A stretch of 64,000 bases of DNA from an uncultured Bacilli bacterium (GTDB taxonomy: Bacteria > Bacillota_I > Bacilli_A > RF39 > UBA660): assembly GCA_934101865.1 (NCBI GenBank), contig CAKOSA010000001.1:22235-86234 (forward strand). The letters are read 5' to 3'. The position numbers were made by a program, and so were the translations under genes. The notes under the pieces were generated by a model. That model was given only the letters and a program-made list of their open reading frames with translations. It did not search any database and was not told where the DNA came from. Below are positions 10,477 through 52,180 of the stretch, one piece after another. Each line of letters begins with the position of its first letter. Positions within the stretch are counted from its first letter, which is position 1.

Positions 10477-10791
10477 ATGAGAAGTTTTTTTAGTGCCCTA
10501 TGGCGCCTTGGAATATATGTCCTCTTAATAGTAATACTATACATCGTAATCATATACAAAGTAAAATACGAAGGAATAGAAGACCCCACTAAATACCTCT
10601 ATTTCTATAAATGCAGTGGCAATATCTGCACCACCAGTGAAACCATAACAAACTACCTCTCTAAGTACGAATGTGATAAAACATGCCCTATAGTAATAGA
10701 GTTCCAAGAAAACAGTAAAGTAGAACTCCAACACAATAACTCCATATTCACCTATAACTATGAAAAGGGAGAAATAATAAATGAAGAATAA
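10477..10791 (+). CDS. Small Cys-containing membrane-anchored protein
   Basis: 104 aa with an N-terminal TM helix and five Cys (CSGNIC, CDKTC). Overlaps the start of the TasA-like gene by 11 nt. Confidence 0.4.
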   Translation: MRSFFSALWRLGIYVLLIVILYIVIIYKVKYEGIEDPTKYLYFYKCSGNICTTSETITNYLSKYECDKTCPIVIEFQENSKVELQHNNSIFTYNYEKGEIINEE

Positions 10792-12307
10792 AAGAAAAAA
10801 TATAATAATACTATTAATATTAATACTCCTATTAACCCTAGGAATAGGCATAACCTATGCCATCTTTAAATGGACTAGTTCTAACTCTGATATAACCTTT
10901 AATATTGAAGGCTGTTATGTAACCTATGATGCCGGAGGAGATATAACAGGAGCATCCCTAGGTCCAGCCCTATCCAAAGATGATACCAATAATGTACTAT
11001 CCAAAAAAATAACCCTATCCCCAGAATGTAGTGGAGTAACAGCCAATCTTACCCTAAAAGTAAATGAGATAGCACCTGAACTAAAAAACACTTCCTTTAT
11101 ATGGTCCCTATATGAAGGAAATACCAAAGTATCAAATGGTAACTTCGCTGATGCAACTACTAATAAAGTATACACTCTTCTAAGTACTAAAACCCTAACA
11201 GAAAAAACTACTACAACTTATGCCCTCTATATCTATATAGATGGAACTGTCGATAATGATAGTAGTATGGGTGGTAAAAGTTTTAAGTTTACACTTGGAG
11301 CAAGTGGAGAGAATGCACTGCGTAAGGAGCCACCTGCTAACTTTGTAGAGGAGTTAGATGACGGAACTACTGGTGATAGCGGAAGTGGGGTGTACAAAGT
11401 ACAGCATAGCGCTATTGCGAGTGGTGGTAGTGCAACAGGTAGTGAAATACCAGCCGTAACTGATTATAGATATTATGGACCTAATCCTAATAATTATATA
11501 TGTTTAGATATGGAAGGTGGTAGTACTTGTCCTGATAAACATTTATATAGAATAATAGGAAGTATCTATGAAGAATTAGAAAATACTAAGAGAATAAAGG
11601 TAATAAAGGCAACACCTCTTACAGATGGAAATACAACAACCTATTATTGGAATAGTGACGATAATAATATTTGGGCTACTATTACTAGTGGTAATTATAG
11701 TAATAGTTTAACAAGTGGAGCAAGTTTAATGAAACTCTTAAATAGTGGGGCATGGTGGAATGGAACAAGTGCTAGTTATCATACTGAGGAGAATCCGATG
11801 GGAACTACAGTTAATTTTGCTAATTATAAATTAAGTGATAAGGCAAAGAGTTATATAACTACAAGTAGATATTATTTAGGAGGAGATAGAACAGCAAATG
11901 GAGTGATGACTAATGAATTCTACGCTTATGAAAGGGGGACTACTAGGTATGGTACGAATAGACCATTATATTGGGATGGAATGGTAGGACTTATGTATCC
12001 AAGTGATTATGGGTATGCGGCTGGTAATACTTGTGTAACGGAGACTAACTTAAGTTATTTTGCAGGGGGATATGAAAAAGAATGTATGAATAAGGATTGG
12101 CTTTATATTTCAAAGACTGATCAGTGGTTAATGTCACCTGTTTCGGGCGATTCCTACTGTGCTTTTAGCATTACCTCGAGAGGCGACATTGCTAACGGCT
12201 ACTATTCCACAGATGCTACTTCAGTCCGTCCCACCTTCTACCTCAAATCAGACATCTCCATAACTGACGGAGAAGGAACTGAGACTAATCCCTACATCCT
12301 ATCCTAA
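10781..12307 (+). CDS. TasA/camelysin-like protein with a SipW-cognate-type signal anchor, fused to a conserved about 330-aa Cys-containing C-terminal domain (paralog A)
   Basis: N-terminus KNKRK + TM + ITYAIFKW...ITFNIEG resembles SipW-cognate signals (GTFAYFSD...TFxxGTLDL). The C-terminal half shares DDGTTGDSGSGVYKV, DYRYYGxNxNNYICLDMEGxSTCPD, IKVIKATPLTDG, YWDGxVGLMYPSDYGYAAGN and RPTFYLKS blocks with the 26903..28426 protein. Confidence 0.6.
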   Translation: MKNKRKNIIILLILILLLTLGIGITYAIFKWTSSNSDITFNIEGCYVTYDAGGDITGASLGPALSKDDTNNVLSKKITLSPECSGVTANLTLKVNEIAPELKNTSFIWSLYEGNTKVSNGNFADATTNKVYTLLSTKTLTEKTTTTYALYIYIDGTVDNDSSMGGKSFKFTLGASGENALRKEPPANFVEELDDGTTGDSGSGVYKVQHSAIASGGSATGSEIPAVTDYRYYGPNPNNYICLDMEGGSTCPDKHLYRIIGSIYEELENTKRIKVIKATPLTDGNTTTYYWNSDDNNIWATITSGNYSNSLTSGASLMKLLNSGAWWNGTSASYHTEENPMGTTVNFANYKLSDKAKSYITTSRYYLGGDRTANGVMTNEFYAYERGTTRYGTNRPLYWDGMVGLMYPSDYGYAAGNTCVTETNLSYFAGGYEKECMNKDWLYISKTDQWLMSPVSGDSYCAFSITSRGDIANGYYSTDATSVRPTFYLKSDISITDGEGTETNPYILS

Positions 12308-20933: not shown

Positions 20934-22707
20934 TCACGAAAATAACGATAATCAAGTAAAAGACTTCAAAAAAGCCATAACAACCCTTCTAAAAAACTGT
21001 AAACCATATAAAACACCCATCATCATAGTAATGATTCTATCAGCCCTAGCAAGTGCCTTAGGAGTATATGGGCCAGGAAGATTAAAAGAAATAACCGATA
21101 CCATTACAGAAGGAATAATGACAGGAATAGACTTAAGTAAAGTAACCAAAATAGCCATTACCCTAACCATAGTATACACACTAAGTTGGCTTTTCAACTG
21201 CTTAGCAGGCTTCATAATGGCTACAGTTACCAATAAATTTTCTCAAAAACTAAGAAAAAACCTTTCCCATAAAATAAATAAACTACCCCTAAAATACTTC
21301 GATAAAAACAGTTATGGAGATGTATTATCAAGAATAACTAATGATGTAGATACAATTGGCCAGTCCCTAAACAATAGTATCAGTGACTTTGTAGGTGCCA
21401 TTACCCTCTTTATAGGTTCAATAATAATGATGTTTGCAACCAACTGGATAATGGCCATAACCGGAATAGTAGCCAGTCTAATCGGCTTTGCTCTAATGAT
21501 TGTAATACTATCCAAAAGCCAAAAATACTTCCTTCTTCAACAACAAGAGTTAGGAGAACTAAACGGTCATATCGAGGAAGTATACTCAGGCCACGATGTC
21601 GTAACTGTTTATAACGCTAATAAAGAAACAACCCAAAAGTTCGATGAGATAAACAATAAACTATACGATAGTGCTCGTAAAAGTAGATTTCTATCCGGAC
21701 TTATGATGCCCCTAATGAGCTTTATCGGATCATTCGGATATGTGGCTGTATGCGTGGTAGGAGCAGCCCTTGTTATAAACGGAAATATAACCTTTGGCGT
21801 AATAGTAGCCTTTATGATATACATAAGACTATTCACAAATCCGCTAAGTACAATCGCCCAAGCAATGACCTATATGCAGTCAACTGCTGCCGCATCAGAA
21901 AGAGTATTCGACTTCCTAGATGAAGAAGAAATGCCAAGCGAAAGAAATATTACCAAAAAATTACTACCCGAAGAAGTAAAAGGAAACGTTATCTTTGACC
22001 ACGTAAAATTTGGCTATGACGAAGACAAAATAATCATAAAAGACTTCTCAGCTAATATCAAAGCCGGTTCTAAGGTTGCTATCGTTGGCCCTACGGGAGC
22101 CGGTAAAACAACGATGGTTAACTTACTTATGAAGTTTTACGATATAAATTCCGGTGATATCAAAATAGATGACATATCCGTAAAGGACCTAACCAGAGAA
22201 AACGTTCACGACCTCTTTGTAATGGTACTTCAAGATACTTGGCTCTTTAAAGGCACAATCAAAGATAACATTAGATTTAATAGAGAAAATATAACAGATG
22301 AAGAGATAAAGAAAGCGTGTAAAACCGTTGGGATGGACCACTACATAAGATCCCTCTCCAAAGGATACGACACAATGCTTGAAGAAGTAGATAACCTTTC
22401 TGCTGGACAAAAACAATTACTAACAATAGCCCGTTGTATGACAAGTTCAGCCCCATTGTTAATATTAGATGAAGCAACATCATCAGTAGATACTAGAACC
22501 GAAGAACTAGTCCAAAAAGCAATGGATAAACTAACTGAGGGCAAAACATCCTTTATAATAGCCCATCGATTATCTACAATCAAAAATGCTGATTTAATTT
22601 TAGTTATGAACGAAGGTAACATCATTGAACAAGGTAATCACGAAGAATTACTAAAACAAGACGGTTTCTATGCTAAATTATATAATTCCCAATTTGAAAA
22701 TGTGTAA
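20926..22707 (+). CDS. ABC exporter permease/ATPase subunit, the partner with a canonical catalytic site
   Basis: Walker A GPTGAGKTT, signature LSAGQKQ, Walker B LLILDEATSSVD, H-loop IAHRLST. Overlaps the upstream subunit gene by 8 nt. Confidence 0.85.
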   Translation: MHNHENNDNQVKDFKKAITTLLKNCKPYKTPIIIVMILSALASALGVYGPGRLKEITDTITEGIMTGIDLSKVTKIAITLTIVYTLSWLFNCLAGFIMATVTNKFSQKLRKNLSHKINKLPLKYFDKNSYGDVLSRITNDVDTIGQSLNNSISDFVGAITLFIGSIIMMFATNWIMAITGIVASLIGFALMIVILSKSQKYFLLQQQELGELNGHIEEVYSGHDVVTVYNANKETTQKFDEINNKLYDSARKSRFLSGLMMPLMSFIGSFGYVAVCVVGAALVINGNITFGVIVAFMIYIRLFTNPLSTIAQAMTYMQSTAAASERVFDFLDEEEMPSERNITKKLLPEEVKGNVIFDHVKFGYDEDKIIIKDFSANIKAGSKVAIVGPTGAGKTTMVNLLMKFYDINSGDIKIDDISVKDLTRENVHDLFVMVLQDTWLFKGTIKDNIRFNRENITDEEIKKACKTVGMDHYIRSLSKGYDTMLEEVDNLSAGQKQLLTIARCMTSSAPLLILDEATSSVDTRTEELVQKAMDKLTEGKTSFIIAHRLSTIKNADLILVMNEGNIIEQGNHEELLKQDGFYAKLYNSQFENV

Positions 22708-22850: not shown

Positions 22851-23699
22851 ATGATTAAAGGAAAACCATTTGTAAAGTGGGCCGGAGGAAAAAGACAAAT
22901 AATAGATAAATTAAAACAATATGTTCCCGATGAGTTTAATACTTATTATGAACCATTTATAGGTGGAGGAGCATTATTGTTTGAACTTTCGCCTAAAAAA
23001 GCCGTTATTAATGATTGCAATAAAGAACTGATGAATGTATATGAATGTATTAAAGATGAGAAAAAGTTTGAAGCAATGTGCCGAGAACTAAATCATCACG
23101 AAACCGAACATTCAGAAGAATATTATTACGAGATTAGAAACATTGATAGGGATAAAAAGAAATTTAATAAGTTAGCAGACTATAAAAGAGCAGCTCGTAC
23201 TATTTACTTAAACAAAGCTTGTTTTAATGGCTTATATAGAGTTAATAGTAACAATGAATTTAACGTACCATTTGGTAAAAAAACTAAGGTAAATACTTAT
23301 GAAGGACAAAATTTAGGTATTATTTGTGGATACTTAAATTATAATGACATTAAGCTATTATCAGTAGATTTTGAAGAGGCAGTAAAAGATGCAAAAAAAG
23401 GAGATTTTATTTATTTTGATCCACCTTATGATTCTGATACATCAACATTTAATAGTTATACCGAAGATGGTTTTGGCAAGGAAGAACAAAAACGCCTTGC
23501 CAAAGTATTTAAAGAACTATCTGATAGAGGCTGTTATGTGATGCTTTCTAATCATAACACAATATTAGTAAATGAATTATATAAAGATTTCAATATTCAT
23601 ATAATTGAAGCAAAGAGAAATATTAATGCTAATGGAAAGAAGAGAGGTGAAGTAGAAGAATTAATTATTACAAATTTTGAAAATAAAAGAGGATTTTAA
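22851..23699 (+). CDS. dpnM: DNA adenine methyltransferase, DpnM/Dam family (GATC, D12 class N6-adenine MTase)
   Basis: FVKWAGGKRQ SAM motif, DPPY motif (FIYFDPPY), and a C-terminal block YVMLSNHNTILVNELYKDFNIHIIEAKR. 282 aa. Strong similarity, from memory, to S. pneumoniae DpnM. Confidence 0.85.
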   Translation: MIKGKPFVKWAGGKRQIIDKLKQYVPDEFNTYYEPFIGGGALLFELSPKKAVINDCNKELMNVYECIKDEKKFEAMCRELNHHETEHSEEYYYEIRNIDRDKKKFNKLADYKRAARTIYLNKACFNGLYRVNSNNEFNVPFGKKTKVNTYEGQNLGIICGYLNYNDIKLLSVDFEEAVKDAKKGDFIYFDPPYDSDTSTFNSYTEDGFGKEEQKRLAKVFKELSDRGCYVMLSNHNTILVNELYKDFNIHIIEAKRNINANGKKRGEVEELIITNFENKRGF

Positions 23700-23731
23700 T
23701 AGTCAATGATGTATAATAAAGGAGGTAGTAT

Positions 23732-24499
23732 GTGAATAAAAAGTTTTATTATGAAGATAAAGATTTTAAACTCATACAAGGTGATTCTTTTAAAATATTA
23801 AAAGAAATAGAACCAAAAAGCATTGATATGATATTTGCTGACCCCCCTTATTTTTTATCCAGTGATGGTATTTCTTGTAGTGGCGGAAAAATGGTATCAG
23901 TAAATAAAGGTAATTGGGATAAATCTATCAGTATAGAAGAAAAACATAAATTTAATCGAAAGTGGATTAAACTATGCTATCATATATTAAAAGATAATGG
24001 TACTATTTGGATTAGCGGAACTATGCACAATATTTATTCAATAGGTATGGCATTGGAACAAGAAGGATTTAAAATAATAAATAATATAACTTGGAAAAAG
24101 TTAAATCCTCCACCAAATATTAGTTGTAGGGCATTTGTTCATTCCACTGAAACAATTCTATGGGCTAAAAAAAATTTAAAAAATTCCAAACACAAATTTA
24201 ATTATTCATTGATGAGAGAATTAAACGGGGATAAACAAATGAAAGATGTTTGGGAGTCATCACTCACTAAACCTAGTGAGAAAAAATGTGGTAAACATCC
24301 TACTCAAAAACCTATGGAAATATTAGAAAAAATTATATTATCATCAACAGATGAAGGTGATTTAATATTAGATCCATTTAATGGAAGCGGTACTACTGGA
24401 ATTGTTGCTAGTAGATTAAATAGAAAGTATATAGGTATCGAAAAAGAAAAAGAATATTTTGACTTAACAATAAGAAGAAAGGAAAGTGATATAAAATGA
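23732..24499 (+). CDS. dpnA: Second DNA N6-adenine methyltransferase of the DpnII system (DpnA-like, ssDNA-active in the pneumococcal system)
   Basis: MIFADPPYFLSSDG, WISGTMHNIYSIGMALEQEGFKI, KHPTQKP, and a GSGTTG motif. 255 aa, closely resembling pneumococcal DpnA as recalled. Confidence 0.8.
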   Translation: MNKKFYYEDKDFKLIQGDSFKILKEIEPKSIDMIFADPPYFLSSDGISCSGGKMVSVNKGNWDKSISIEEKHKFNRKWIKLCYHILKDNGTIWISGTMHNIYSIGMALEQEGFKIINNITWKKLNPPPNISCRAFVHSTETILWAKKNLKNSKHKFNYSLMRELNGDKQMKDVWESSLTKPSEKKCGKHPTQKPMEILEKIILSSTDEGDLILDPFNGSGTTGIVASRLNRKYIGIEKEKEYFDLTIRRKESDIK

Positions 24500-25389
24500 A
24501 ACGTGAATTTAATGATGTAATAAAAGGTCTAAAAAAGAGTATTACTCCAACTGATTTTTTTGTAGATTATCCTAAGGTATATTTAAATATAAAAGATTAT
24601 GAAAGACATTTAAATTTATTAAATAGTTTAATTGGTAAAGAAAATATTGAAGAAGAATTTATTGATTTAATATCCGAATATCCAGAAATAATGAAATCAA
24701 TTCCAATTCTTTTAGCAACCCACGAAACAAAATTTGATATTGTAAATGTTCCAACAATGACAATACTTGACAATATAAAAAATAGAAATTTTAATATTAT
24801 AGATGAACAATATATATGCTATGATTTTATTCAATTAAATCATCCTATTGAAGATTATGCTGAATTCTTAAAAAAGAGTGGTTTATTAGAATTGCTAAAA
24901 GATAAAAAGATTAAAAGCCTTGTTGATTATGCAATAGGAATAGAAGTAGGTATGGATACTAATGCTAGAAAATCTAGGTCTGGAAAAATAATGGAAACAA
25001 TAGTTGAAGAATATATTAAACTTTTAGATATTCAATATAATTGTCAAATGAAAAGTGCAAATATAGATAAGAAATATGGAACCAATTTATGTTCAATAGG
25101 TAAAGCAACTAAAAAGTTTGATTTTGTTTATAAAAGTAAAACTGATGGAAAAATAATAGTTATGGAAGTTAATTATTATGGAAAGCAAGGATCAAAACCA
25201 AATGAAACTGCAAAAAGCTATATTGAATTAAACAATAAAATAAAAGCAATTGATAATGTGAAATTTGTTTGGATAACTGACGGAAGAGGGTGGTTACCAT
25301 CTAAAACCAATTTAGAAGATGCTTATGATGAAATTGAATATTTATATACGCTTGAGGATTTAGAAAAAGGCATTTTAGAAAAAATATAA
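24496..25389 (+). CDS. dpnB: Type II restriction endonuclease, DpnII/MboI family (GATC-specific, cuts unmethylated DNA)
   Basis: 297 aa with GIEVGMDTN, KFDFV, EVNYYG..GSK.NETAKSY and FVWITDGRGW blocks typical of the DpnII/MboI REase family. Overlaps the dpnA-like gene by 4 nt. Confidence 0.75.
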   Translation: MKREFNDVIKGLKKSITPTDFFVDYPKVYLNIKDYERHLNLLNSLIGKENIEEEFIDLISEYPEIMKSIPILLATHETKFDIVNVPTMTILDNIKNRNFNIIDEQYICYDFIQLNHPIEDYAEFLKKSGLLELLKDKKIKSLVDYAIGIEVGMDTNARKSRSGKIMETIVEEYIKLLDIQYNCQMKSANIDKKYGTNLCSIGKATKKFDFVYKSKTDGKIIVMEVNYYGKQGSKPNETAKSYIELNNKIKAIDNVKFVWITDGRGWLPSKTNLEDAYDEIEYLYTLEDLEKGILEKI

Positions 25390-25468: not shown

Positions 25469-26659
25469 ATGAAAGTCATAATAGATCCCGCTAGGGGAGG
25501 AAACGATACCGGAGTAAGTGGGGGAGGAATAACCGAAAAAGATTGGAACCTCACCATATCAAAATACATCTACAATATCCTCAAAAATAATGGCATCGAA
25601 GCCTACCTAACTCGAACTGAGGATATCGATATTCCTGAAGCCGAGCGGGCTACTAAAATAAAAAACTACGCCGCCTCATCAAACGATATCATCGTTATAT
25701 CCAATCGCCTAAATGAAGGTAAAGACGATGGAGCCGAAATCATCTATCCATTAAGAAGTACTGATAACCTCGCCAAAGCCCTTGCCACCGCCCTCGAAAA
25801 TACAGGTCAAAACGTAAACAAATACTATCAACGACGCCTCCCATCCGATCTTGCCTCCGACTACGACTACATAATAAGAAACACCTCTCCCTACGAAACC
25901 CTCATCATAAACTACGGCTATGTCGATAGCCCTGAGGACGATGTAACCCAGTTAAAAAACTATCAACGCTTAGGTGACGCCATTGCAAGTGCTATCATAT
26001 CTCGCGTGTCTTCTAGCGGTACTTACACCGTAAAAACCGGCGATACCCTTTACAGTATTGCCAAGAAATATAACGTCTCCGTAAACGCTCTCAAAACCCT
26101 AAACAACCTCTCCACAAATACCCTTAGAGTAGGCCAAAAACTAAAAATCCCCGCCCAAGAAACCACAACCCCTTCTGCTCCTACCACTCCAAGTACAAAT
26201 ACCTATACCGTAAAAAGAGGCGATACTCTCTATGGGATAGCCCGTGATAATAACACCACTGTCGATACCCTCAAAAGCCTCAATAACCTCACCACCACTA
26301 ACCTAAGTATAGGCCAAACTATAAAACTACCAACTTCCTCCTCATCACCTTCCGGCACCCCCAATACCCTAACATACACCATAAAAAAAGGCGACACTCT
26401 CTACGGCATAGCCACCAAATATAATACCACCATCTCCGCCATCAAATCCCTAAACAATCTTGACACCAACACCCTAACCATTGGCAAAACCCTCAAAATC
26501 CCCACCACCACTTCCTACACAACCTATACCGTGAAAAAAGGCGATAACCTCTATACCATAGCCCGTAAATATAACACCACCGTAAACAATCTCGTTAACC
26601 TAAACAACCTCAAAACCACCACCCTCTCTATCGGTCAAACCCTCAAAGTCCCCCTCTAA
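25469..26659 (+). CDS. N-acetylmuramoyl-L-alanine amidase (Amidase_3) with five C-terminal LysM repeats
   Basis: MKVIIDPARGGNDTGVSG amidase_3 N-terminus. Five repeats of the form YTVKxGDTLYxIAxKYNxxxxxLxxLNNL..xxLxxGQxLKIP. Confidence 0.85.
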   Translation: MKVIIDPARGGNDTGVSGGGITEKDWNLTISKYIYNILKNNGIEAYLTRTEDIDIPEAERATKIKNYAASSNDIIVISNRLNEGKDDGAEIIYPLRSTDNLAKALATALENTGQNVNKYYQRRLPSDLASDYDYIIRNTSPYETLIINYGYVDSPEDDVTQLKNYQRLGDAIASAIISRVSSSGTYTVKTGDTLYSIAKKYNVSVNALKTLNNLSTNTLRVGQKLKIPAQETTTPSAPTTPSTNTYTVKRGDTLYGIARDNNTTVDTLKSLNNLTTTNLSIGQTIKLPTSSSSPSGTPNTLTYTIKKGDTLYGIATKYNTTISAIKSLNNLDTNTLTIGKTLKIPTTTSYTTYTVKKGDNLYTIARKYNTTVNNLVNLNNLKTTTLSIGQTLKVPL

Positions 26660-26833: not shown

Positions 26834-26902
26834 ACTAAACCCCTTGCAAATACCCCCATTATATGATAAAATTTACTTATATTAAAGTAAGAGGTGAATA
26901 TA

Positions 26903-28426
26903 GTGGACACTACCAATAATAAAAGAAAACTAATCCTATCCCTAGTCCTACTAACATCAGTAGTACTACTAGGAACCTTTGCTTGGTACGTATGGTCAAG
27001 TAAAGAAAATACCAGTATGAACGTAACAATTGGGGAACTAGCCGATGTAACCTTTAAAACCGGAACCGATATAAATATAACCAATCTATCCCCAAGTTTT
27101 AACTATGATGACGGAGCCCTAACCGAGTTCTCCATAAAGAAAAAGAAAGACCTAACTACGGAACTAAATACTAACATATATCTAGATATCACTTCCATAT
27201 CCGATAGCCTAAAATCATCAGCCTTCAAATATGAATTACTAAGTAGTAGTGACGGTAATACATATAATAGTGTAGCTAGTGGTAACTTCCAAGACGCATC
27301 CGTAGGTAAATTAAATATATTAACCGATACCCCCCTAGCTGATAACAGAACCTATTATAAACTATATATCTGGATAGATGGTAATGAAGAAAATGATACA
27401 TCTATGCAATCCAGTAGTATGAAAGGGGTATTAAATGTAAATGTATCTACACCTCCGGTTAATGCCATAACCCTAGTTGAGGGGTTAGACGATGGTACCA
27501 CAGGGGATAGTGGAAGTGGAGTATATAAGGTAGAACACGACGCTATTGCGAGTGGTAATAGTGCTACGGGTAATGAAATAAAAGCTACTACTGATTATAG
27601 ATATTATGGTGCTAATGCTAATAACTATATATGCTTAGATATGGAAGGACAGAGTACTTGTCCAGATAGAGGCTTATTTAGGATAATAGGAAGTATTTAC
27701 GAAGAAAATGCTGGTACTAATTTAATTAAGGTAATAAAGGCCACACCCTTAACAGATGGAACAACTAGTACATTTAGTTGGGATTATACTTCAAGTGGCA
27801 CTTATAAAAATATATGGTCTAGTACCACTAGTGGAACGAGTAGTGGGGCCACACTAATGCAATTATTAAATGGTATATATTTAACCAGAGGCTCAGGTAG
27901 TTACTATAATGGTAGTACAACAGCAACAACAATTGATTTTAGTAATACAGGATTAACAGATGTTGCTCAAAGTTTAATGAATACTGGTAAAAGTAATAAT
28001 GGATTAAGTAAATATTATTTAGGGGGATATTCAGATACAAGCTTAAAAACTGATGCCATATATTTAGCAGAAAGAGGCAAGGCAACTAGTAGTGGTAATG
28101 CCTTATACTGGGATGGAAAAGTAGGCTTAATGTATCCAAGTGATTATGGGTATGCAGCGGGAAATGATTGTGTTACTAATACAGCTCCTTATGATTATAA
28201 TGGTGGATGTCGCGATAAAGATTGGTTATATAGAAGTAATAGTTATGAGTGGACACTTACGCCATACGCCTCTGTCACGTTTGGCGTGTGGCTCGTGTAC
28301 AATGGTCACGCGGGCTACGACCGTTCGAGCGGTCCGATCGGTTCCCGCCCCACCTTCTATCTCAAATCTAACATCTCTGTAACAGGCGGAACAGGCACCT
28401 CTTCTGATCCCTATACAGTGGAATAA
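26903..28426 (+). CDS. TasA/camelysin-like protein with a SipW-cognate-type signal anchor, fused to the conserved Cys-containing C-terminal domain (paralog B)
   Basis: Signal anchor KRKLILSLVLLTSVVLLGTFAWYVWSSKENTSMNVTIGEL. INITNLSPS resembles the TasA/CalY NLSNLKPGD block. The C-terminal half is homologous to the 10781..12307 protein. Start chosen as GTG 26903, 5 nt after AGAGGTGA; the ORF-track start 26894 lies inside the RBS. Confidence 0.6.
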   Translation: MDTTNNKRKLILSLVLLTSVVLLGTFAWYVWSSKENTSMNVTIGELADVTFKTGTDINITNLSPSFNYDDGALTEFSIKKKKDLTTELNTNIYLDITSISDSLKSSAFKYELLSSSDGNTYNSVASGNFQDASVGKLNILTDTPLADNRTYYKLYIWIDGNEENDTSMQSSSMKGVLNVNVSTPPVNAITLVEGLDDGTTGDSGSGVYKVEHDAIASGNSATGNEIKATTDYRYYGANANNYICLDMEGQSTCPDRGLFRIIGSIYEENAGTNLIKVIKATPLTDGTTSTFSWDYTSSGTYKNIWSSTTSGTSSGATLMQLLNGIYLTRGSGSYYNGSTTATTIDFSNTGLTDVAQSLMNTGKSNNGLSKYYLGGYSDTSLKTDAIYLAERGKATSSGNALYWDGKVGLMYPSDYGYAAGNDCVTNTAPYDYNGGCRDKDWLYRSNSYEWTLTPYASVTFGVWLVYNGHAGYDRSSGPIGSRPTFYLKSNISVTGGTGTSSDPYTVE

Positions 28427-36977: not shown

Positions 36978-39515
36978 GTGTCATTTCATTCAAAAACGAA
37001 AGCGGGGAATAATATGGGAAAAGCGAGTAAATTTATGAAAGTATTTATAGTTATATGTATGATCATTACACAATTATCGCCTACCATTAGTGTGTTTGCA
37101 GATACAACCACTATGCAAGACGTAGACGTAAATGTTGATGTAGCAAACGATAACTATACAATTACAGCCACAGATTTAGTTGTAAATCCAGAAGAAACCT
37201 ATAGTATTGATTTAGTTGCTGAATTTATATACCAAAATGGTGAAGTTATCTATGCAAACGCTAATAAACCATATACTATTCAAAATATATTGGGTAGTGA
37301 GTTATTAGCGGGATATAAAATTAGTAATTTCAGTTCTATAGTAAGTACACTAGGATTTAACAATTGGACAGCTGGTTATGCGTATCAAGAAGAAAATGGT
37401 GAAACCATTTACTATAATGGTACATATAAGTTTACAGTTACAATTAAAAATAACAAAAATGAAGAAATAAGTATAGTCGAAACAACTAATAAAATAGAAA
37501 GTGATATAACTGAAAAAACAGGATATACATACTATGCTTATGAAACAAACGATGGTGTAGTTGGAAATATAACAAATGACCAAGAACCAATCAATTTAGG
37601 TGAAACTACGGAACAAATAACATTATATGGAAATCTTTATGAACCAAATGAAGCTCCCTATACAATCTATAAAGTAAGTGGAGCAGGATATGATGAAAGT
37701 AGAACATATACAAACTATCAGTTATTCAATGAAGACGGGATAATAACTTATAACTTTAAAGATAAACTACCAGGAACATACACATATAATGAAGTAGTAA
37801 CCCTAACAAAAGAGGACGGAACAAGTATTTCCTATCCCAAAGTATTAAAATTTAGGTATGGAACAAATTTAGATAGCATTCTCTCAAATGAAGAATATAC
37901 ATTTAAAGACGGTCTACTAATAACTGAAGGTTCATATAATAGTGTAATAAAAACTCGTAAAGGTTTAGTAGATTATGTAACAAATATAATAAATAATAGT
38001 AACTATAATGTGTCCATAGTTAACCAATCAAATTTAAATGTATATGATGAATCAGCCCTAACAACAGATGATAAATTAATAATAACATCATTAACAGATG
38101 AAAGCTATAATGAAACATATAATGTTATAGTAAAATACGATTATGATAATGATGGACAAGTTACATACTCTGACTTAGAAAACATTATTAATGAAAAACT
38201 AGGAAATAAAGAAGTATCAAAACAAACAAATTTAGGAGATGCATCTCAAAATCCAACTAAAGACACCATAACAAACGTCCAAAAGAAAATAGACAATGTT
38301 ACAAATATTACAGAACCAACTAGTCCACTAGAAATAACAACTTCTAGTGCAAGTGAAGTAATAAACGGAGAAGAACTGCGAGTAACATACAAATTAAACG
38401 GCAAAACAGATACAATTTCAGGGATAAATGGAACCCTAAATTACGATAAAGAAAATCTAACCCTAACAGATATTATCGTAAGTGATACCCTATCGGGAAC
38501 CATTAATACAAATACAGGTGAATTTCAGTACGTTGGTAATATAAATAATGGCGATGTACTAACCCTTGTATTTAAAGCTAAAAACCCAGTTGATAGTACA
38601 AATATAAGTATAAATAACTTAGAAATAAATAAATACGATTATACTTATAATTTAACAAATAATTCAAACTTAACATCAAATATAAAAATAAAGAAATCAA
38701 ATAATGCTTATTTAAAAACCCTAACTATTAAAGAAGCAGAAATAAATTTCCAAAAAGATGTATTTGAATACAATATAACCATACCAACTGATGTAGATAA
38801 ATTAACCATAAATTATGATGCTGAAATTGGTACATCATTAATTACATATAATAGTGATGATAACGGTAACTTTAAAATAAATGAAACCAAAACACTATAT
38901 ATAACTGTTTTAGCCGAAGACGATGTTACTGAACATACTTACAAAATAAACGTAACAAAAAAACAATCAAATGATAATAATATAAATGATATTAAAACAG
39001 ATAAAGGCAATTTAAATTTTGATGGAAATAAACAAAGTTATAATGTAAATGTTGATGCAAATACCGACCATTTAGATTTAAATATAGTACTTAGAAATAA
39101 CAAAGCAACATACACCATACTCGGAAATAGTAACTTTAAAGCCGGATTAAACCTTGTTACTATAAGAGTAGTTGCCGAAGATGGAACAATAAAAGAGTAT
39201 TATATTAGTGTAAATAAAGCATCATCAGGTGTTGAACAAGGAAATACCACAATACCCACTAATAATAATGGTAATCAAAATCCTACCCAAACTCAAAATA
39301 TTGCCGAAGAAGTAGTAGAAACCAAAACCGAAGACATCCAAAAATATACAAACGTTGATGATAAAGACAAAACAAGCAAAAAAGATAAAACAAAAATTAA
39401 AGAAGAGGATGCTGGAATTTCTCATATTATAATAATTATTTTAATACTACTTGTAATTGCTGGATTAATATATCTAATATTTAAAGATGATGAGGACGAA
39501 AAAAAACAAAAATAA
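36978..39515 (+). CDS. Large cell-surface protein: signal peptide, dockerin-like Ca-binding loop, two cadherin-like beta-sandwich domains, C-terminal TM anchor
   Basis: N-terminal signal (KFMKVFIVICMIITQLSPTISVFA). DYDNDGQVTYSD loop. Two modules ending ...ITVLAEDDVTEHTYKINVTK and ...IRVVAEDGTIKEYYISVNK, typical of cadherin-like beta-sandwich domains. C-terminal TM plus charged tail. GTG start with an AAGAGGA RBS. Confidence 0.55.
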   Translation: MSFHSKTKAGNNMGKASKFMKVFIVICMIITQLSPTISVFADTTTMQDVDVNVDVANDNYTITATDLVVNPEETYSIDLVAEFIYQNGEVIYANANKPYTIQNILGSELLAGYKISNFSSIVSTLGFNNWTAGYAYQEENGETIYYNGTYKFTVTIKNNKNEEISIVETTNKIESDITEKTGYTYYAYETNDGVVGNITNDQEPINLGETTEQITLYGNLYEPNEAPYTIYKVSGAGYDESRTYTNYQLFNEDGIITYNFKDKLPGTYTYNEVVTLTKEDGTSISYPKVLKFRYGTNLDSILSNEEYTFKDGLLITEGSYNSVIKTRKGLVDYVTNIINNSNYNVSIVNQSNLNVYDESALTTDDKLIITSLTDESYNETYNVIVKYDYDNDGQVTYSDLENIINEKLGNKEVSKQTNLGDASQNPTKDTITNVQKKIDNVTNITEPTSPLEITTSSASEVINGEELRVTYKLNGKTDTISGINGTLNYDKENLTLTDIIVSDTLSGTINTNTGEFQYVGNINNGDVLTLVFKAKNPVDSTNISINNLEINKYDYTYNLTNNSNLTSNIKIKKSNNAYLKTLTIKEAEINFQKDVFEYNITIPTDVDKLTINYDAEIGTSLITYNSDDNGNFKINETKTLYITVLAEDDVTEHTYKINVTKKQSNDNNINDIKTDKGNLNFDGNKQSYNVNVDANTDHLDLNIVLRNNKATYTILGNSNFKAGLNLVTIRVVAEDGTIKEYYISVNKASSGVEQGNTTIPTNNNGNQNPTQTQNIAEEVVETKTEDIQKYTNVDDKDKTSKKDKTKIKEEDAGISHIIIIILILLVIAGLIYLIFKDDEDEKKQK

Positions 39516-43377: not shown

Positions 43378-43938
43378 GTGAAAGATCAAACCGACAAAAA
43401 AAATATGTATTATGTAATAATGCTCGTTATGACATTAATAATAATGCTAATAGGAGTAACATTTGCCCTTTATGGAATACTAAAATCAGCCAAAGAAGAT
43501 TCCACCAAACTATATACCGGTAAAATAGAAATTAATTACAAAGATGGAACCTATATCAAAAATCCAAACTTATGGCCAACTACCGAACCATCCTTTTCAG
43601 TAACATCTGACAAAGTATACAAAAATAACTTTTCAGTAATAAGTAGCAGTACTATTGACCAAACAATTGATGTAAAATTAAATATAAATATTAACGAATT
43701 TTCTTCGGACGCCATAAAATATTCCCTTTATAATTCCAAGGGAGATAAACTAAATACCGGAACTGTTCCAAATAATGGAAGCATTACAATTTTGTCAAAT
43801 AACTATCTAGCCAAAGATGCTGTCGCCGATTACACACTAATAATATGGCTTGATGAAAAAAACTATAATCAAAATAATGAACAAGGGAAAAAATTACAAG
43901 CCACCATTGAAGTAAATGCACAGCAAATCAAATACTAA
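43378..43938 (+). CDS. TasA/camelysin-like protein with a SipW-cognate-type signal anchor (short paralog C, N-terminal domain only)
   Basis: KKNMYYVIMLVMTLIIMLIGVTFALYGILKSAKEDSTKLYTGKIEINY signal. YIKNPNLWPTTEPSFS resembles the TasA NLSNLKPGD block. The domain end YTLIIWLDEKNY parallels YALYIYIDG in paralog A and YKLYIWIDG in paralog B. Confidence 0.55.
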   Translation: MKDQTDKKNMYYVIMLVMTLIIMLIGVTFALYGILKSAKEDSTKLYTGKIEINYKDGTYIKNPNLWPTTEPSFSVTSDKVYKNNFSVISSSTIDQTIDVKLNININEFSSDAIKYSLYNSKGDKLNTGTVPNNGSITILSNNYLAKDAVADYTLIIWLDEKNYNQNNEQGKKLQATIEVNAQQIKY

Positions 43939-44746: not shown

Positions 44747-45007
44747 ATGGAAACACTAAAAGTATCATCAAAGTCAAATCCAAGTTCAGTAGCTGGAGCA
44801 TTAGCCAATGTTTTTAGAGAGAAAGACAGCGTAGAAGTGCAAGCCGTAGGAGCAGGAGCCCTTAATCAGGCCATAAAAGCTATAGCTATTGCTAGAGGTT
44901 TTGTTGCACCTACCGGAAAAAATCTCGTTTGCATTCCAGCATTTACCGATATAACCATCGACGGAGACGAACGAACCGCTATAAAACTAATCGTAGAGGC
45001 AAAATAA
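44747..45007 (+). CDS. spoVS: Stage V sporulation protein S
   Basis: 86 aa, near-identical in pattern to Bacillus SpoVS as recalled (LKVSSKSNPSSVAGALA...GAGALNQAIKAIAIARGFVAP...CIPAFTDI..DG.ERTAIKLIVE). Confidence 0.9.
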   Translation: METLKVSSKSNPSSVAGALANVFREKDSVEVQAVGAGALNQAIKAIAIARGFVAPTGKNLVCIPAFTDITIDGDERTAIKLIVEAK

Positions 45008-45077
45008 CCTCTTTTTTTCATATAATTGCCCATTCTCAAATCTAGGAAAAACATACTATATAGGGAAGGGAGAAAAA

Positions 45078-45575
45078 ATGAATAATTTTGAAAATTTTTT
45101 TAATATGTCGCCAGCTGGTGATATGAATTATGTAACCGATATAAATAAAATGATGACAGATATGAACTACCAAAATATGCCAACTCAAATGCCTTATAAG
45201 TCCACTAGTTCAAGTACTGCTTCATCTTTAACCAATCCTGATATTGGTTTCAAACGAGGAAATATGTTTAACAATCAATATGAAGAGTATAAAGGATATA
45301 TGCCCGCTTCGCTAAACCCTACGGGAGCCCAAGAAAAAGAATTAAACACCCTAAGGGAACTAAAATTCGCTCTAGTTGATTTAGACCTCTATTTAGATAC
45401 ACATCCCAATGATACTGAAACAATCAATATCTATAATACATATCTAAATGAAGAAAAAAGACTATGCAGTGAATACGAAAGAAAATATGGCCCCCTCACC
45501 CTAGATAGTCCCTATCTATTAAATAGAACGTGGCTTTGGAGTGAAGGAAAATGGCCTTGGGAGGCGAGAATATAA
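45078..45575 (+). CDS. cotJB: Spore coat protein CotJB with an N-terminal extension of about 85 aa (possible CotJA-CotJB fusion)
   Basis: The C-terminal half carries the CotJB signature (LDLYLDTHPND...YGPLT...W.W.EG.WPWE). The N-terminal half is Met/Asn/Tyr-rich low-complexity sequence. 165 aa, against roughly 87 aa for B. subtilis CotJB. Confidence 0.7.
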   Translation: MNNFENFFNMSPAGDMNYVTDINKMMTDMNYQNMPTQMPYKSTSSSTASSLTNPDIGFKRGNMFNNQYEEYKGYMPASLNPTGAQEKELNTLRELKFALVDLDLYLDTHPNDTETINIYNTYLNEEKRLCSEYERKYGPLTLDSPYLLNRTWLWSEGKWPWEARI

Positions 45576-46132
45576 TGTGGAAATATGAAAAAATGTTACA
45601 ATATCCCGTAAATATAAAAAAGAAAAATTTAAAATTTGCCAAATATCTAATAACACAATACGGAGGCAGTAACGGCGAGCTAGGAGCGGCCCTAAGATAC
45701 CTAAATCAAAGATATACGATGCCAGATAGTAGGGGAAAAGCACTACTAACAGATATAGGAACCGAAGAACTAGGTCACGTAGAAATGATATCAGCAATGG
45801 AATACCAATTATTACAAGGAGCAACCCCCAAAGAATTAGAAGAAGCTGGACTAGGAGGTAACTATGCTGAACACCGAACATCCCTATACCCAACCGATGC
45901 AAGTGGCGTACCATTCACCGTATCATATTTTGCAACTACCGGTGACCCCATTGCTGACCTATCCGAAGATATGGCTGCTGAACAAAAAGCCCGAGCCGTA
46001 TACGAAAGCCTAATAAACTTAACCAACGACCCCGATATCGTCGGACCACTCCTATTTCTAAGACAAAGAGAAGTAATACACTTTAATAGATTTAAAGAAT
46101 TATACGATTATTACAAGAAAACAAACAAATAA
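45551..46132 (+). CDS. cotJC: Spore coat protein CotJC (manganese catalase family)
   Basis: MWKYEKMLQYPVN...YGGSNGELGAALRYLNQRYTMPD...TDIGTEELGHVEMI... closely matches CotJC/Mn-catalase as recalled. Overlaps cotJB by 25 nt. Confidence 0.85.
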   Translation: MALGGENIMWKYEKMLQYPVNIKKKNLKFAKYLITQYGGSNGELGAALRYLNQRYTMPDSRGKALLTDIGTEELGHVEMISAMEYQLLQGATPKELEEAGLGGNYAEHRTSLYPTDASGVPFTVSYFATTGDPIADLSEDMAAEQKARAVYESLINLTNDPDIVGPLLFLRQREVIHFNRFKELYDYYKKTNK

Positions 46133-49349: not shown

Positions 49350-50645
49350 ATGAAAAAAACATTAATGAAATTATTCACAATGTGTCTTGCATTCTTAACA
49401 GTTGCACCAAGCATAAGTGCAGCCACAAACGTGCCAAGCACAATCACCGTACAGGAACAACAAAGAACCAGTGCCTATTTAACAGGTGGACAAGGAACAG
49501 GCGTATTATATAGGAAAGCAACTAACGGAAATATCATTTACTGTATGACTTATGAAAGAACATCACCAGAAAACGGTATGAGCTTTAAATTAGGAAGTGA
49601 GTTAGATGCAGGTCTAACATACTTACTAGCAAACGGATATCCAAACAAATCATTTACAGGCGATAATATGAAAGATTACTATATTACCCAAATGGCAATT
49701 TGGATATACCAAAGTGATAGCGGTCATCAAATATCAAATCTAGCAACCAAAGTAAAAAACGGAACCTATACAGGAGATGCAACCGGAACAGCAATGGCCA
49801 AACAAATTATGAACTTATATAATGCCGCTGTCAAAGCCAAAAGTGATGGATATGTAAAACCAAGTTTTAGTGCTAATACAAAGAATTTAACCCTAACACT
49901 TGACGGAGATTACTATGTATCTGAATTAGTGAAAGTAACAAGTTCAAATACAACAAGTACATTTACAGTAACTACAAATGATGCTCCCGACGGAACAATA
50001 ATAACAAGTTCTAACGGAACAAAAACCAATAGCATTGCCGTAACAGATGGCTTCTATGTAAAAGTACCAGCATCAAGTGTAAAAGGAAAAACCATAAGCT
50101 TCGGTTTATCATTAGCTACAACAGGTGTAGTAAACAAAGCATATCTATACCTATCAGGAAACTCATATCAAGATATGTCTGAGGCAGCAATATATCCAGA
50201 GAATACACCACTTTCAGATAGCATTACTGCAACAGCATCATCAAACGTAATCAAAATATCAAAACAAGATATAACAAGCAAAGAAGAACTAGCGGGGGCA
50301 ACACTAATCGTAAAAGATGAAAACGGAAATGAAATAGACAAATGGGTAAGTGGAAATGAACCACATTACATCTATAACTTAAAAGATGGAACATATACCC
50401 TAACAGAAATTCAGGCTCCCGAGGGATATAAACTATCAACGGAAACAATAACCTTTGAAGTAAAAGACGGAAAAGTAACCGAAAACATAGTAATGTTCAA
50501 TGAAAAGAAACCAGTAGAAACACCAGAAGAAGTAATTGAAGTAAAGAAAACAGATTCAAGTGCCACTTTATTCTATACAGTATGCTCTTTAGTAGTTTTA
50601 GCGGGAATAGCACTAGTATACAGATATAAAAATGCACAAAGATAA
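49350..50645 (+). CDS. Surface adhesin with an N-terminal thioester (TQxA) domain and a CnaB-type isopeptide domain; C-terminal hydrophobic anchor with a non-LPXTG motif
   Basis: Signal peptide. Cys in IIYCMTYE and TQMAIW (a TQxA(I/V)W thioester-domain signature). CnaB-like ATLIVKDENGNEI...DGTYTLTEIQAPEGYKL. C-terminus ...EVKKTDSSA + TLFYTVCSLVVLAGIALV + YRYKNAQR. Confidence 0.75.
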   Translation: MKKTLMKLFTMCLAFLTVAPSISAATNVPSTITVQEQQRTSAYLTGGQGTGVLYRKATNGNIIYCMTYERTSPENGMSFKLGSELDAGLTYLLANGYPNKSFTGDNMKDYYITQMAIWIYQSDSGHQISNLATKVKNGTYTGDATGTAMAKQIMNLYNAAVKAKSDGYVKPSFSANTKNLTLTLDGDYYVSELVKVTSSNTTSTFTVTTNDAPDGTIITSSNGTKTNSIAVTDGFYVKVPASSVKGKTISFGLSLATTGVVNKAYLYLSGNSYQDMSEAAIYPENTPLSDSITATASSNVIKISKQDITSKEELAGATLIVKDENGNEIDKWVSGNEPHYIYNLKDGTYTLTEIQAPEGYKLSTETITFEVKDGKVTENIVMFNEKKPVETPEEVIEVKKTDSSATLFYTVCSLVVLAGIALVYRYKNAQR

Positions 50646-51267
50646 AATAATAGCACTACTAGGAGTTCTCCTTACTGTTGGAGGACTCTTCCTCATATCA
50701 AACCACTATTTAAACGAAAAAATAGATATTGCGTATGATATGAAAAACCAAAAATTATTTCAAAACGGTGAAACTACCGAAGAAAACCAAGAAGAAGAAA
50801 AAGTGGAAAGAGATGCAGGAGCAGGTATTGCAACTGCCAAAAAAGAAGAACCAAAATATTACTATATAGGTTACTTAGAAATACCAAGAATATCATTCTA
50901 TCGTGGGTTTGTAGACCCAAATACTAAGGGAAATGATATAAGTGTTAACATTGAAATAAATAAAGCCTCATCATTTCCAGATGTTAGTGGCGGAAACTTC
51001 ATAATATCCGCTCACTCAGGAACAAGCTATAATGCTTACTTCCGTAATTTATATAAACTAGAAGAAGGCGACACAACCTATGTCTATTATAATAATATAA
51101 AATATACATATATAATAGACAATATATATAACGTACCAAAAGTAGGGAAAGCAACTATATACAGAGATACTAGTAAAAATACCCTAACGCTTATAACCTG
51201 TACTTATGGTGATGAAACATCACAAACAATATATATTGCTTACTTAGATAAAACAGAATCATATTAG
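50632..51267 (+). CDS. Sortase (class B-like transpeptidase)
   Basis: N-terminal TM anchor, catalytic His in IISAHSG, TLITC Cys motif, and a downstream Arg (TIYRD). Overlaps the adhesin gene by 14 nt. Confidence 0.8.
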   Translation: MHKDKIIALLGVLLTVGGLFLISNHYLNEKIDIAYDMKNQKLFQNGETTEENQEEEKVERDAGAGIATAKKEEPKYYYIGYLEIPRISFYRGFVDPNTKGNDISVNIEINKASSFPDVSGGNFIISAHSGTSYNAYFRNLYKLEEGDTTYVYYNNIKYTYIIDNIYNVPKVGKATIYRDTSKNTLTLITCTYGDETSQTIYIAYLDKTESY

Positions 51268-51283: not shown

Positions 51284-52180
51284 ATGACAAGAACAAGCAT
51301 AATAGAAAAATTAAATTTAGTTAAAGATATGATAGCAGGACAAAAAGAGTTAATATTAGTATTTGCATTTTTTATGATATTAGGTATTCTATTATTTGCC
51401 TTTTCCAAAAAAAACAAATCCAAATACCTAAAAACATTCATTATTTCTTATATCCTCATACTAATAGCTCTTATAGCAGGCTATAATGTAAGTCTTTATA
51501 AATTAGTAGACTACTTTATAAATAACGTATTTTATCTACTAGTATTTCCAAACATTGCCGTATATGCTGGTATGATAATAACAAGTAATATTCTCCTTTT
51601 AACAGGATTATTAAAAGAAAAAACACCTAAATTAGTAAAAATAATTAATGTAATATTTTATAGTGTAATAGGATATATGACCTTCTTAACCCTAGATGTA
51701 ATAACAAAAGACAAAATAGATGTATATTCAGAATTAGATGTATATTCAAATGAAACCCTTTTTGCTCTATTACAAATAAGTATGATAATATTCATAACTT
51801 GGATAGTAGTAAGAATAATAATAAAAGCCGTAACTAAGTTTGGTAAAAAAGAAGTAGTGGAAAGTACTGTTCCTGTAATAGAAAATACTTCTCTCGTAGA
51901 AAAATTTGTAAATAACGCCGAAGAAGTACCAACTCCAGTTATGAATTTAGAAACTAGTAATTCCGAAAACACAGTGTATAATAATATTACTAATAATACA
52001 AATAATATAGCACCTCATAGTTCTAATCTAATAAACGAATTACCAACATACAAATATGAAGCTGTCCCAAACAATTCTTTACATAAAAGTAACAATATAG
52101 AGATATCATTCACTAAGGAAGAGTGGATGGGACTAAATGATATATTAAAGAGAGAACAAAACCGTAGTAACAATGGTTAG
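51284..52180 (+). CDS. Hypothetical polytopic membrane protein with an Asn-rich C-terminal tail
   Basis: Five or six TM helices and no known motif. Immediately downstream of the sortase gene. Confidence 0.4.
   Translation: MTRTSIIEKLNLVKDMIAGQKELILVFAFFMILGILLFAFSKKNKSKYLKTFIISYILILIALIAGYNVSLYKLVDYFINNVFYLLVFPNIAVYAGMIITSNILLLTGLLKEKTPKLVKIINVIFYSVIGYMTFLTLDVITKDKIDVYSELDVYSNETLFALLQISMIIFITWIVVRIIIKAVTKFGKKEVVESTVPVIENTSLVEKFVNNAEEVPTPVMNLETSNSENTVYNNITNNTNNIAPHSSNLINELPTYKYEAVPNNSLHKSNNIEISFTKEEWMGLNDILKREQNRSNNG

Follow-up and report, generated by a model that had tools for sequence, protein, structure and literature searches.

How does a gut bacterium attach an adhesin to its surface when the protein ends in none of the familiar sorting signals, and what kind of sortase would carry out the attachment? 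The question is raised by two overlapping genes in a 64,000-nucleotide stretch of DNA (the window) from an uncultured Bacilli bacterium (GTDB lineage Bacillota_I; Bacilli_A; RF39; UBA660), which covers positions 22,235 to 86,234 of the forward strand of contig CAKOSA010000001.1 in assembly GCA_934101865.1. The first gene (49350–50645) encodes a 431-residue adhesin, and the second (50632–51267) encodes a 211-residue protein with a Pfam Sortase domain; the open reading frames overlap by 14 nucleotides. These genes, the third gene described below, and all of their features lie on the plus strand. Sortases, described in textbooks as His-Cys-Arg transpeptidases, are targets for antivirulence drugs and are in wide use for protein ligation. 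An original prediction, made from the letters of the DNA, described the pair as a thioester-domain adhesin with a class B-like sortase and a noncanonical sorting signal. The finding is real, and it is more interesting than first stated, for partly different reasons. The adhesin itself is an ordinary, though unusually compact, class II TIE protein; what appears to be unconventional is the sortase system, comprising a large unclassified sortase family with Gln in place of Arg, a relaxed V-P/K/E-x-T-x signal, and a conserved, uncharacterized membrane partner. We read the locus, with moderate confidence, as a self-contained three-gene cassette for the dedicated sortase-mediated surface anchoring of an adhesin that binds covalently.

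The C-terminus of the adhesin contains a short motif, E-V-K-K-T-D (residues 397–402, P5 to P1′; 50538–50555), followed by a hydrophobic helix (residues 406–424), the basic tail RYKNAQR, and the stop codon (together 50565–50645). Helix and tail, read from the sequence, are common to all homologues, and the complete tripartite layout is present in all 120 adhesin homologues listed. As originally noted, the motif is not LPXTG, NPQTN, QVPTGV, or (S/P)PXTG, and the comparison of C-termini proposed at the time does reveal a conserved pattern. We aligned 141 nonredundant C-termini, taken from the listed adhesin homologues and from substrates of related loci, with the alignment anchored on the Thr at P1 (141 of 141). 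Val occupies P4 in 125 of these sequences (89%) and Pro occupies P3 in 128 (91%), while P1′ is Asp in 39, Gly in 36, Ser in 25, and Ala in 25. On this alignment the family signal reads (E/D)-V-P-x-T-[D/G/S/A] and not LPXTG. The adhesin contains no LPXTG pentapeptide with Pro at P3 and Gly at P1′, since V-K-K-T-D keeps only the Thr and the family-typical Val, and no LPXTG-anchor model is found among its NCBIfam matches.

The roughly 9% of C-termini without Pro at P3 consist of the clade of the window's adhesin, here the query clade (EVKKTD, ETKRTS, ETKKTS), and a scatter of others (VENTA, VESTG, VKNTA, VEDTF); these other members, with Glu or Lys at P3, also carry intact cassettes. Within the query clade the motif region is the best-conserved part of the adhesin C-terminus. 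The stretch IEVKKTDSSATLFY is identical in an orthologue that is 60% identical overall (P0002), and ETK[KR]TSSS is kept in relatives at 45% and 42% identity. In the latter (P0024) the region reads VVVPITDSSSTLIY, which displays the Pro-Ile to Lys-Lys change in an otherwise similar context. The Lys variant is therefore conserved across orthologues of 94, 60, 45, and 42% identity, and the overlapping sortase gene is intact wherever the contig allows it to be seen. Because the stretch is identical in an orthologue only 60% identical overall, EVKKTD appears to be a selected Pro-to-Lys derivative of the family VPxT[D/G/S/A] signal and not a decayed LPXTG. The original prediction had allowed that a standard motif might simply have been mutated here. 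A Pro-containing motif is indeed present in relatives, yet the Lys variant is kept across the clade together with an intact sortase, and this conservation leads us to reject a pseudogenized sorting signal. By analogy with other sortase substrates, cleavage is predicted to take place after Thr401. The cognate sortases of the query clade also share substitutions that are rare elsewhere in the family, namely Lys192 to Tyr, Ala126 to Ser, Ile/Val174 to Ala, and Tyr115 to Phe. Position 192 lies two residues after the catalytic Cys and position 126 two residues before the catalytic His, and we consider these changes candidates for an adaptation to Lys-Lys at P3/P2.

The sortase is composed of an N-terminal transmembrane anchor (residues 6–24), a disordered linker, and a catalytic barrel (residues 78–211). 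It matches Pfam Sortase (PF04203, MEROPS C60) with 57.4 bits against a cutoff of 26.6 and TIGR01076 sortase_fam with 49.4 bits against 39.35. An AlphaFold2 (AF2) model built with 54 homologues has a predicted local distance difference test (pLDDT) score above 93 over residues 78–211, and Foldseek matches it to solved sortases with a probability of 1.00 and a target-normalized template-modeling score of up to 0.80. These matches are spread about equally over classes A, C, D, and E, at 17–27% identity. Every NCBIfam class model scores far below its own cutoff: class C, the best match, reaches 56.1 bits (cutoff 160), SrtD 49.5 (140), class D 36.9 (165), class E 33.8 (160), and class F 22.9 (166). 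The best PDB profile match is an Ebp class C sortase, yet neither the conserved DP[FWY] lid nor the C-terminal transmembrane helix can be read in the sequence. The class B-like assignment made originally did not survive: no class B model appears among the NCBIfam matches at E values up to 0.1, no SrtB structure appears among the sequence or fold matches, and the signal VKKTD is not of the NPxTx type. The enzyme is best described, from these profile and fold comparisons, as a member of the sortase superfamily that belongs to none of the curated classes. We note that the segment GKATIYRDTSKNTLTL (residues 174–189; 51151–51198) resembles framework 3 of the antibody heavy-chain variable domain (GRFTISRDNSKNTLYL), and that a short-query PDB search with it was flooded by antibody chains; the likeness is due to chance.

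The catalytic His128 (51013–51015), in the sequence AHSG, is invariant in an alignment of 54 sortase sequences (A1), and the TLITC motif with the nucleophile Cys190 (51187–51201) is invariant in the family. Two members of the His/TLITC/Arg set originally assigned are thus present; the third is not. The sequence contains no Arg after Cys190, where Lys207 is the sole basic residue, and a gapless alignment to Streptococcus agalactiae SrtA (PDB 3rcc) pairs ...TLITCTYGDETSQTIYIA with ...TLVTCTDPEATERIIVHA. Gln198 thus sits on the only Arg that follows the Cys in S. agalactiae SrtA, and full-length and profile alignments give the same register. Gln198-Thr199 (51223–51228) is invariant in A1, and the AF2 model places Gln198 where the last strand begins, the site at which known sortases have their catalytic Arg. 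Taken together, the alignments and the model indicate that Gln198 occupies the position of the catalytic Arg. The only conserved Arg of the enzyme, Arg178 (51163–51165; at least 90% in A1), lies 12 residues before Cys190 in the predicted β6/β7 loop and is a candidate for a substrate contact or for a relocated catalytic Arg.

The replacement is a property of the family as a whole. A HMMER scan of 1.84 billion representatives with a threshold of E up to 1e-30 places at least 509 clusters at 50% identity in the sortase family, and among the 148 best family representatives the Arg position holds Gln in 146 and Arg in none. A His-Cys-Arg triad has been stated for all sortases (PMC8225981). The literature that we searched holds no description of a sortase class that lacks the catalytic Arg, which is not proof of novelty. 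The McCafferty laboratory is reported to have found, in 2007–2008, that Staphylococcus aureus SrtA keeps activity when Arg197 is replaced by the neutral residue citrulline; if so, a hydrogen-bond-donating Gln would be a plausible substitute for Arg.

Directly downstream, a third gene, which we call MEM and which the original prediction did not include, begins 16 nucleotides after the sortase stop codon (51284–52180; 298 residues) behind a strong GGGGGAG ribosome-binding site. The protein has five predicted transmembrane helices (residues 23–180), a disordered linker that is variable and of low complexity, and a conserved C-terminal helix (residues 278–297). Phe88-Pro89, Tyr94, Tyr154, and Trp173 are invariant or nearly so (alignments A3 and A4), and by the positive-inside rule the conserved residues are predicted to face outward, the side on which the sortase works. 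MEM matches no Pfam or NCBIfam family above cutoff; a weak match to DUF6057 (22 bits against a cutoff of 29.8) is seen in 4 of 29 members. We found 242 homologues, few of which carry a source name, and all of those are named "hypothetical protein". The AF2 model (pLDDT 71) has no Foldseek match in the PDB at E below 3.

The three genes recur as a unit. We examined the gene order in 86 sequences, comprising 85 related loci and the window, and found substrate-sortase-MEM to be the usual order. In 58 of the 67 loci with enough upstream sequence, the gene with the sorting signal either abuts the sortase gene or overlaps it, in support of the tight pairing with a dedicated sortase that was proposed at the outset. 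A MEM homologue adjoins the sortase in 55 of the 65 loci with enough downstream sequence. A search started from three MEM homologues led back to a thioester domain (TED)/SpaA adhesin, a sortase, and MEM in all three loci, which adjoin pcrA and ligA; in the window the neighbor is mutS, which shows that the three genes move together as a cassette. This layout is shared by the two closest Lys-motif relatives, in which the cognate sortases (P0121 and P0123) likewise overlap the adhesin genes. A promoter and terminator scan gave no terminator-like site at or near either gene junction; its only two terminator-like matches are both inside the adhesin gene, and the counts are at the level of shuffled sequence. 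The features of the adhesin and sortase are shared by hundreds of homologues whose genes stand in the same order, and so are more than chance.

Several loci depart from the usual plan. In one sub-clade (L017, L023, L029, L033, L042, and L073) the sortases read TCSQTDKTKQIVY, the substrates are about 860 residues long and end in EVPNT[M/I]A, and the downstream MEM gene is missing, which means that not every member has the membrane partner. Some cassettes contain two substrate genes, with the signals TPITG and APSTG in L002 and with two paralogues of about 520 residues, both ending in VPNTL, in L004; one substrate gene is the number seen in the window and in most related loci. L002 and L020 have MEM upstream of the sortase gene.

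The adhesin itself follows a known design, as the original description of a thioester-domain and CnaB protein had it, and the features then quoted (the Cys of IIYCMTYE, TQMAIW, the hydrophobic helix, and the basic tail) are all present. Both domains score above their Pfam cutoffs, TED at residues 63–157 (43.1 bits against 22) and SpaA (CnaB-like, PF17802) at residues 301–385 (62.5 bits against 23.1). The closest solved structure is BaTIE of Bacillus anthracis (PDB 6fwv; E 2.7e-25), to which residues 56–376 align unbroken over BaTIE residues 31–335. The N-terminus, MKKTLMKLFTMCLAFLTVAPSISAA, is signal-peptide-like; with its basic n-region, hydrophobic core, and small-x-small cleavage site, it is predicted to be a Sec signal peptide that spans approximately residues 1–25 and ends in ...SISAA (49350–49424). 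The class II TED that follows covers about residues 56–295, its β-sandwich insertion included (49515–50234; limits from the BaTIE alignment, PMC8092201, and PMC6194298), and precedes the CnaB/SpaA stalk domain (50235–50513).

The bond-forming residues were assigned by the same alignment. In BaTIE the thioester joins Cys71 and Gln266, whereas the TQxx(hydrophobic)W motif is a feature nearby, and neither its Gln nor its Trp is essential for bond formation (Miller et al., PMC6194298). Cys65 of IIYCMTYE (49542–49544) aligns with BaTIE Cys71 (residue 40 of 6fwv), and Gln274 (50169–50171) aligns with BaTIE Gln266 (residue 235 of 6fwv), which makes Cys65-Gln274 the predicted thioester pair. TQMAIW (residues 113–118; 49686–49703) is the accessory motif; its Gln, originally taken as the thioester partner of the Cys, is ruled out in that role by the residue mapping and by PMC6194298. 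Isopeptide-bond residues are likewise predicted in the stalk, where Lys305 (50262–50264), Glu353 (50406–50408), and Asn384 (50499–50501) align with BaTIE Lys297, Glu343, and Asn373. An alignment of 25 adhesin family members (A2) shows no variation at Gln274, Lys305, Glu353, or Asn384 and almost none at Cys65. In many homologues in A2 (e.g., P0069, P0074, P0079, and P0083) the Gln of the TQ is replaced by Gly or Ala; since the equivalent of Gln274 is invariant, this fits a TQ Gln that is dispensable for the thioester (PMC6194298). The protein can be described, on the strength of these alignments, as a minimal class II TIE protein, a TED with a β-sandwich insertion on a single CnaB stalk.

These observations suggested to us how the cassette may work. 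The pre-adhesin, judged by its signal peptide and C-terminus, would be exported by Sec and stay anchored in the membrane through its C-terminal helix and basic tail. Outside the cell, if the BaTIE alignment is a guide, the class II TED would fold with a Cys65-Gln274 thioester on top of the stalk, whose one CnaB domain would be locked by an isopeptide bond between Lys305 and Asn384. The thioester could then react with an amine of a ligand from host, diet, or microbes, so that adhesin and ligand become covalently joined. The N-terminally anchored sortase, as synteny, motif conservation, and analogy suggest, would recognize E-V-K-K-T-D and cleave after Thr401 with Cys190 and His128, while Gln198 would provide the hydrogen-bond or oxyanion support that Arg gives in all characterized sortases. 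The thioacyl intermediate would then be resolved by an amine, most likely that of a peptidoglycan precursor, to leave the adhesin linked to the wall. More speculatively, MEM may work with the sortase at the outer membrane face, where it could stabilize the enzyme, as SafA does for its own sortase, or organize the hand-over between substrate and acceptor.

The last chemical step could be different. The acyl intermediate might be resolved on an acceptor other than peptidoglycan, such as a lipid, an amine on MEM, or water, in which last case the adhesin would be released, and the Arg-to-Gln change and an obligatory membrane partner would then reflect a different chemistry. The family-wide loss of the catalytic Arg would suit such a chemistry, as would the invariant residues on the predicted outer face of the five-helix partner and the wide range of residues at P1′ (D, G, S, A, L, M), which sets the family apart from wall-anchoring classes. 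We consider this outcome unlikely: the organism has peptidoglycan, because the window encodes an Amidase_3 protein (N-acetylmuramoyl-L-alanine amidase) with four LysM repeats (25469–26659), the tripartite signal is typical of wall-sorted proteins, MEM has no conserved nucleophilic Lys (Lys9 is not conserved in A3), and one sub-clade of the sortase family does without MEM. A pilus-like polymer of the class C kind, with the adhesin as its tip or repeating subunit and the two Lys residues of the query-clade motif perhaps as intermolecular acceptors, is a still weaker candidate. Class C gives both the best NCBIfam match and, with Ebp, the best PDB profile match, but the former scores 56 bits against a cutoff of 160 and the sortase lacks the conserved DP[FWY] lid and the C-terminal transmembrane helix. 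V/I-PxTG-type motifs and SpaA domains are typical of pilins, and NCBIfam also gives a weak match to pilus ancillary protein 1; the YPK pilin motif ([VILFY]YP[KR]), however, occurs in 0 of the 120 adhesin homologues, and we have set canonical pilin polymerization aside on that account. The second substrates of L002 and L004, which would suit a pilus, stand against the single substrate gene of the window and most related loci.

Two further alternatives deny the sortase its role on this adhesin. A motif without the Pro that 91% of relatives have at P3 might go unprocessed, so that the C-terminal helix simply keeps the adhesin in the membrane and the sortase is idle or serves substrates encoded elsewhere; TIE adhesins without sortase anchoring do exist, for example TIEpLS20 (PMC8092201). 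We give this little credence, as the motif is the best-conserved C-terminal part across the clade and is identical at 60% overall identity, the sortase and MEM genes are intact and keep their overlapping layout in Lys-motif genomes, and the other members with Glu or Lys at P3 (VENTA, VESTG, VKNTA, and VEDTF) have intact cassettes. It would be very surprising if the sortase homologue were a dead pseudoenzyme that only binds or chaperones the adhesin, even though it is without the Arg that PMC8225981 gives for all sortases. Across at least 509 clusters at 50% identity, little or no variation is seen at His128, the Cys of TLxTC, and Gln198, which points to selection on catalysis. The activity reported for the citrulline variant of SrtA would also make Gln a plausible substitute.

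Sortase-mediated anchoring by a dedicated cassette remains the explanation that we prefer, and several points weigh against it. Each of its steps relies on what sequence, gene order, and fold prediction suggest. The spatial equivalence of Gln198 and Arg, and the position of Arg178, are judged by alignment and secondary-structure position only, and the loss of Arg could mean an altered chemistry (hydrolysis or a different acceptor) or a much lower activity. The link between the Lys motif and the clade-specific sortase substitutions is confounded by phylogeny. The acceptor is something that we infer, with sortases and substrates judged from the window and related loci, and the role of MEM, which has no homology to anything characterized, is inferred entirely. 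A bolder interpretation would have the locus represent a seventh kind of sortase system, in which a His-Cys-Gln center recognizes Val (P4) and Thr (P1) with no need for Pro or Gly, a dedicated five-helix partner stabilizes the enzyme or presents the acceptor, and the product is perhaps not an ordinary peptidoglycan-linked protein; we regard this as a tentative possibility, and doubt it more than we believe it.

The host is an uncultured, peptidoglycan-containing, spore-forming gut member of the Bacilli, and the cassette is chromosomal. A YgjP-like metallopeptidase gene flanks it on one side and mutS on the other, in a region of housekeeping genes. The sortase gene is 99–100% identical to contigs of the human-gut metagenome-assembled genome "Bacilli bacterium HGM10819" and, likewise, to gut metagenome contigs that include Hadza samples, and its family is widespread in human and animal gut metagenomes. 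A few kilobases upstream of the cassette (44747–46132) lie genes for SpoVS, CotJB, and a CotJC-type Mn-catalase (PF05067); we saw no functional link between them and the cassette, which elsewhere adjoins pcrA and ligA. A further surface protein of 845 residues (36978–39515) has Cadherin-like β-sandwich domains and a C-terminal transmembrane helix; it carries no V-x-x-T sorting motif and so is unlikely to be among the substrates of the cassette sortase. Pfam also identifies a DpnII-type restriction-modification system at 22851–25389, with a D12-class N6-adenine methyltransferase, an N6_N4 methyltransferase, and a DpnII endonuclease in a row. Two paralogues of about 510 residues (10781–12307 and 26894–28426), each with an N-terminal transmembrane or signal segment and no Pfam match, share a Cys-containing C-terminal region (...YRYYG.N.NNYICLDMEG.STCPD...YPSDYGYAAGN...), and a shorter third open reading frame (43378–43938) is similar to them at its N-terminus. 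An Rfam scan of the window gave only two tRNAs, both outside the cassette.

A natural His/Cys/Gln family offers a direct natural test of the role of Arg in sortases. Its substrates tolerate D, G, S, and A at P1′ and Lys or Glu in place of Pro, so that the family could yield ligation enzymes with new specificities. MEM would be the first candidate for a sortase accessory membrane factor in low-GC Gram-positive bacteria, since reports of SafA are limited to the Actinobacteria, and a compact, covalently binding adhesin from an uncultured commensal bears on how such bacteria attach in the gut.

BaTIE and other class II TIE adhesins have a signal peptide, class II TED, CnaB, and sorting signal in the same order, and the thioester Cys and Gln and the Lys/Glu/Asn isopeptide triad align. 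BaTIE has three CnaB domains, compared with the single domain here, which is among the smallest architectures in the family; it ends in an LPATG signal and not EVKKTD, and it relies on a housekeeping sortase where the adhesin of the window has its own sortase and membrane partner. For that partner the nearest parallel is SafA of the Actinobacteria, a 52-residue protein with one transmembrane helix whose gene directly follows srtA and which is reported to be missing from Firmicutes; SafA binds the sortase through an exoplasmic FPW motif, protecting it from signal peptidase (PMC9282373). Like SafA, MEM is a membrane protein encoded immediately downstream of a sortase gene, and both have an F-P-x motif at the predicted outer end of a transmembrane helix (FPW in SafA; F88-P89-(N) in MEM). 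MEM is unlike SafA in its size (about 200–500 residues), its five helices, its cytoplasmic tail, and its FPN in place of FPW. There is no detectable similarity of sequence or fold between the two, and we regard the likeness as a possible functional analogy and not as homology.

Relaxed signals and dedicated enzymes are also found among other sortases. Clostridioides difficile SrtB, a class B enzyme with a full His-Cys-Arg triad, recognizes (S/P)PxTG and NVQTG. As in the cassette, these signals have no Leu at P4, and NVQTG has no Pro at P3; the C. difficile system differs in its class, in its full triad, and in the Gly that it keeps at P1′. The thioester tip adhesin Cpa of Streptococcus pyogenes has a VPPTG signal. 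Class C systems such as that of Cpa share V-P-x-T-G-type signals and the combination of a thioester domain with SpaA/CnaB domains, and class C is where the cassette sortase finds its highest similarity by NCBIfam and PDB profile search. The cassette differs from them in that it has no lid motif, pilin-motif Lys, backbone pilin gene, or catalytic Arg, and its sortase scores below the class cutoff. The class D pairs (YhcR-YhcS of Bacillus subtilis, with LPDTS, and SrtD of B. anthracis, with LPNTA) resemble the cassette in other respects: the substrate gene adjoins its own sortase gene, P1′ is not Gly, the host is a spore-forming Firmicute, and SrtD is among the best NCBIfam matches. The cassette sortase falls far below the class D cutoffs, its signal has Val and not Leu at P4, Lys at P3, and Asp at P1′, in contrast to LPxTA, and the cassette is set apart from these pairs by a Gln in place of the catalytic Arg and by a conserved gene for a partner with five transmembrane helices.

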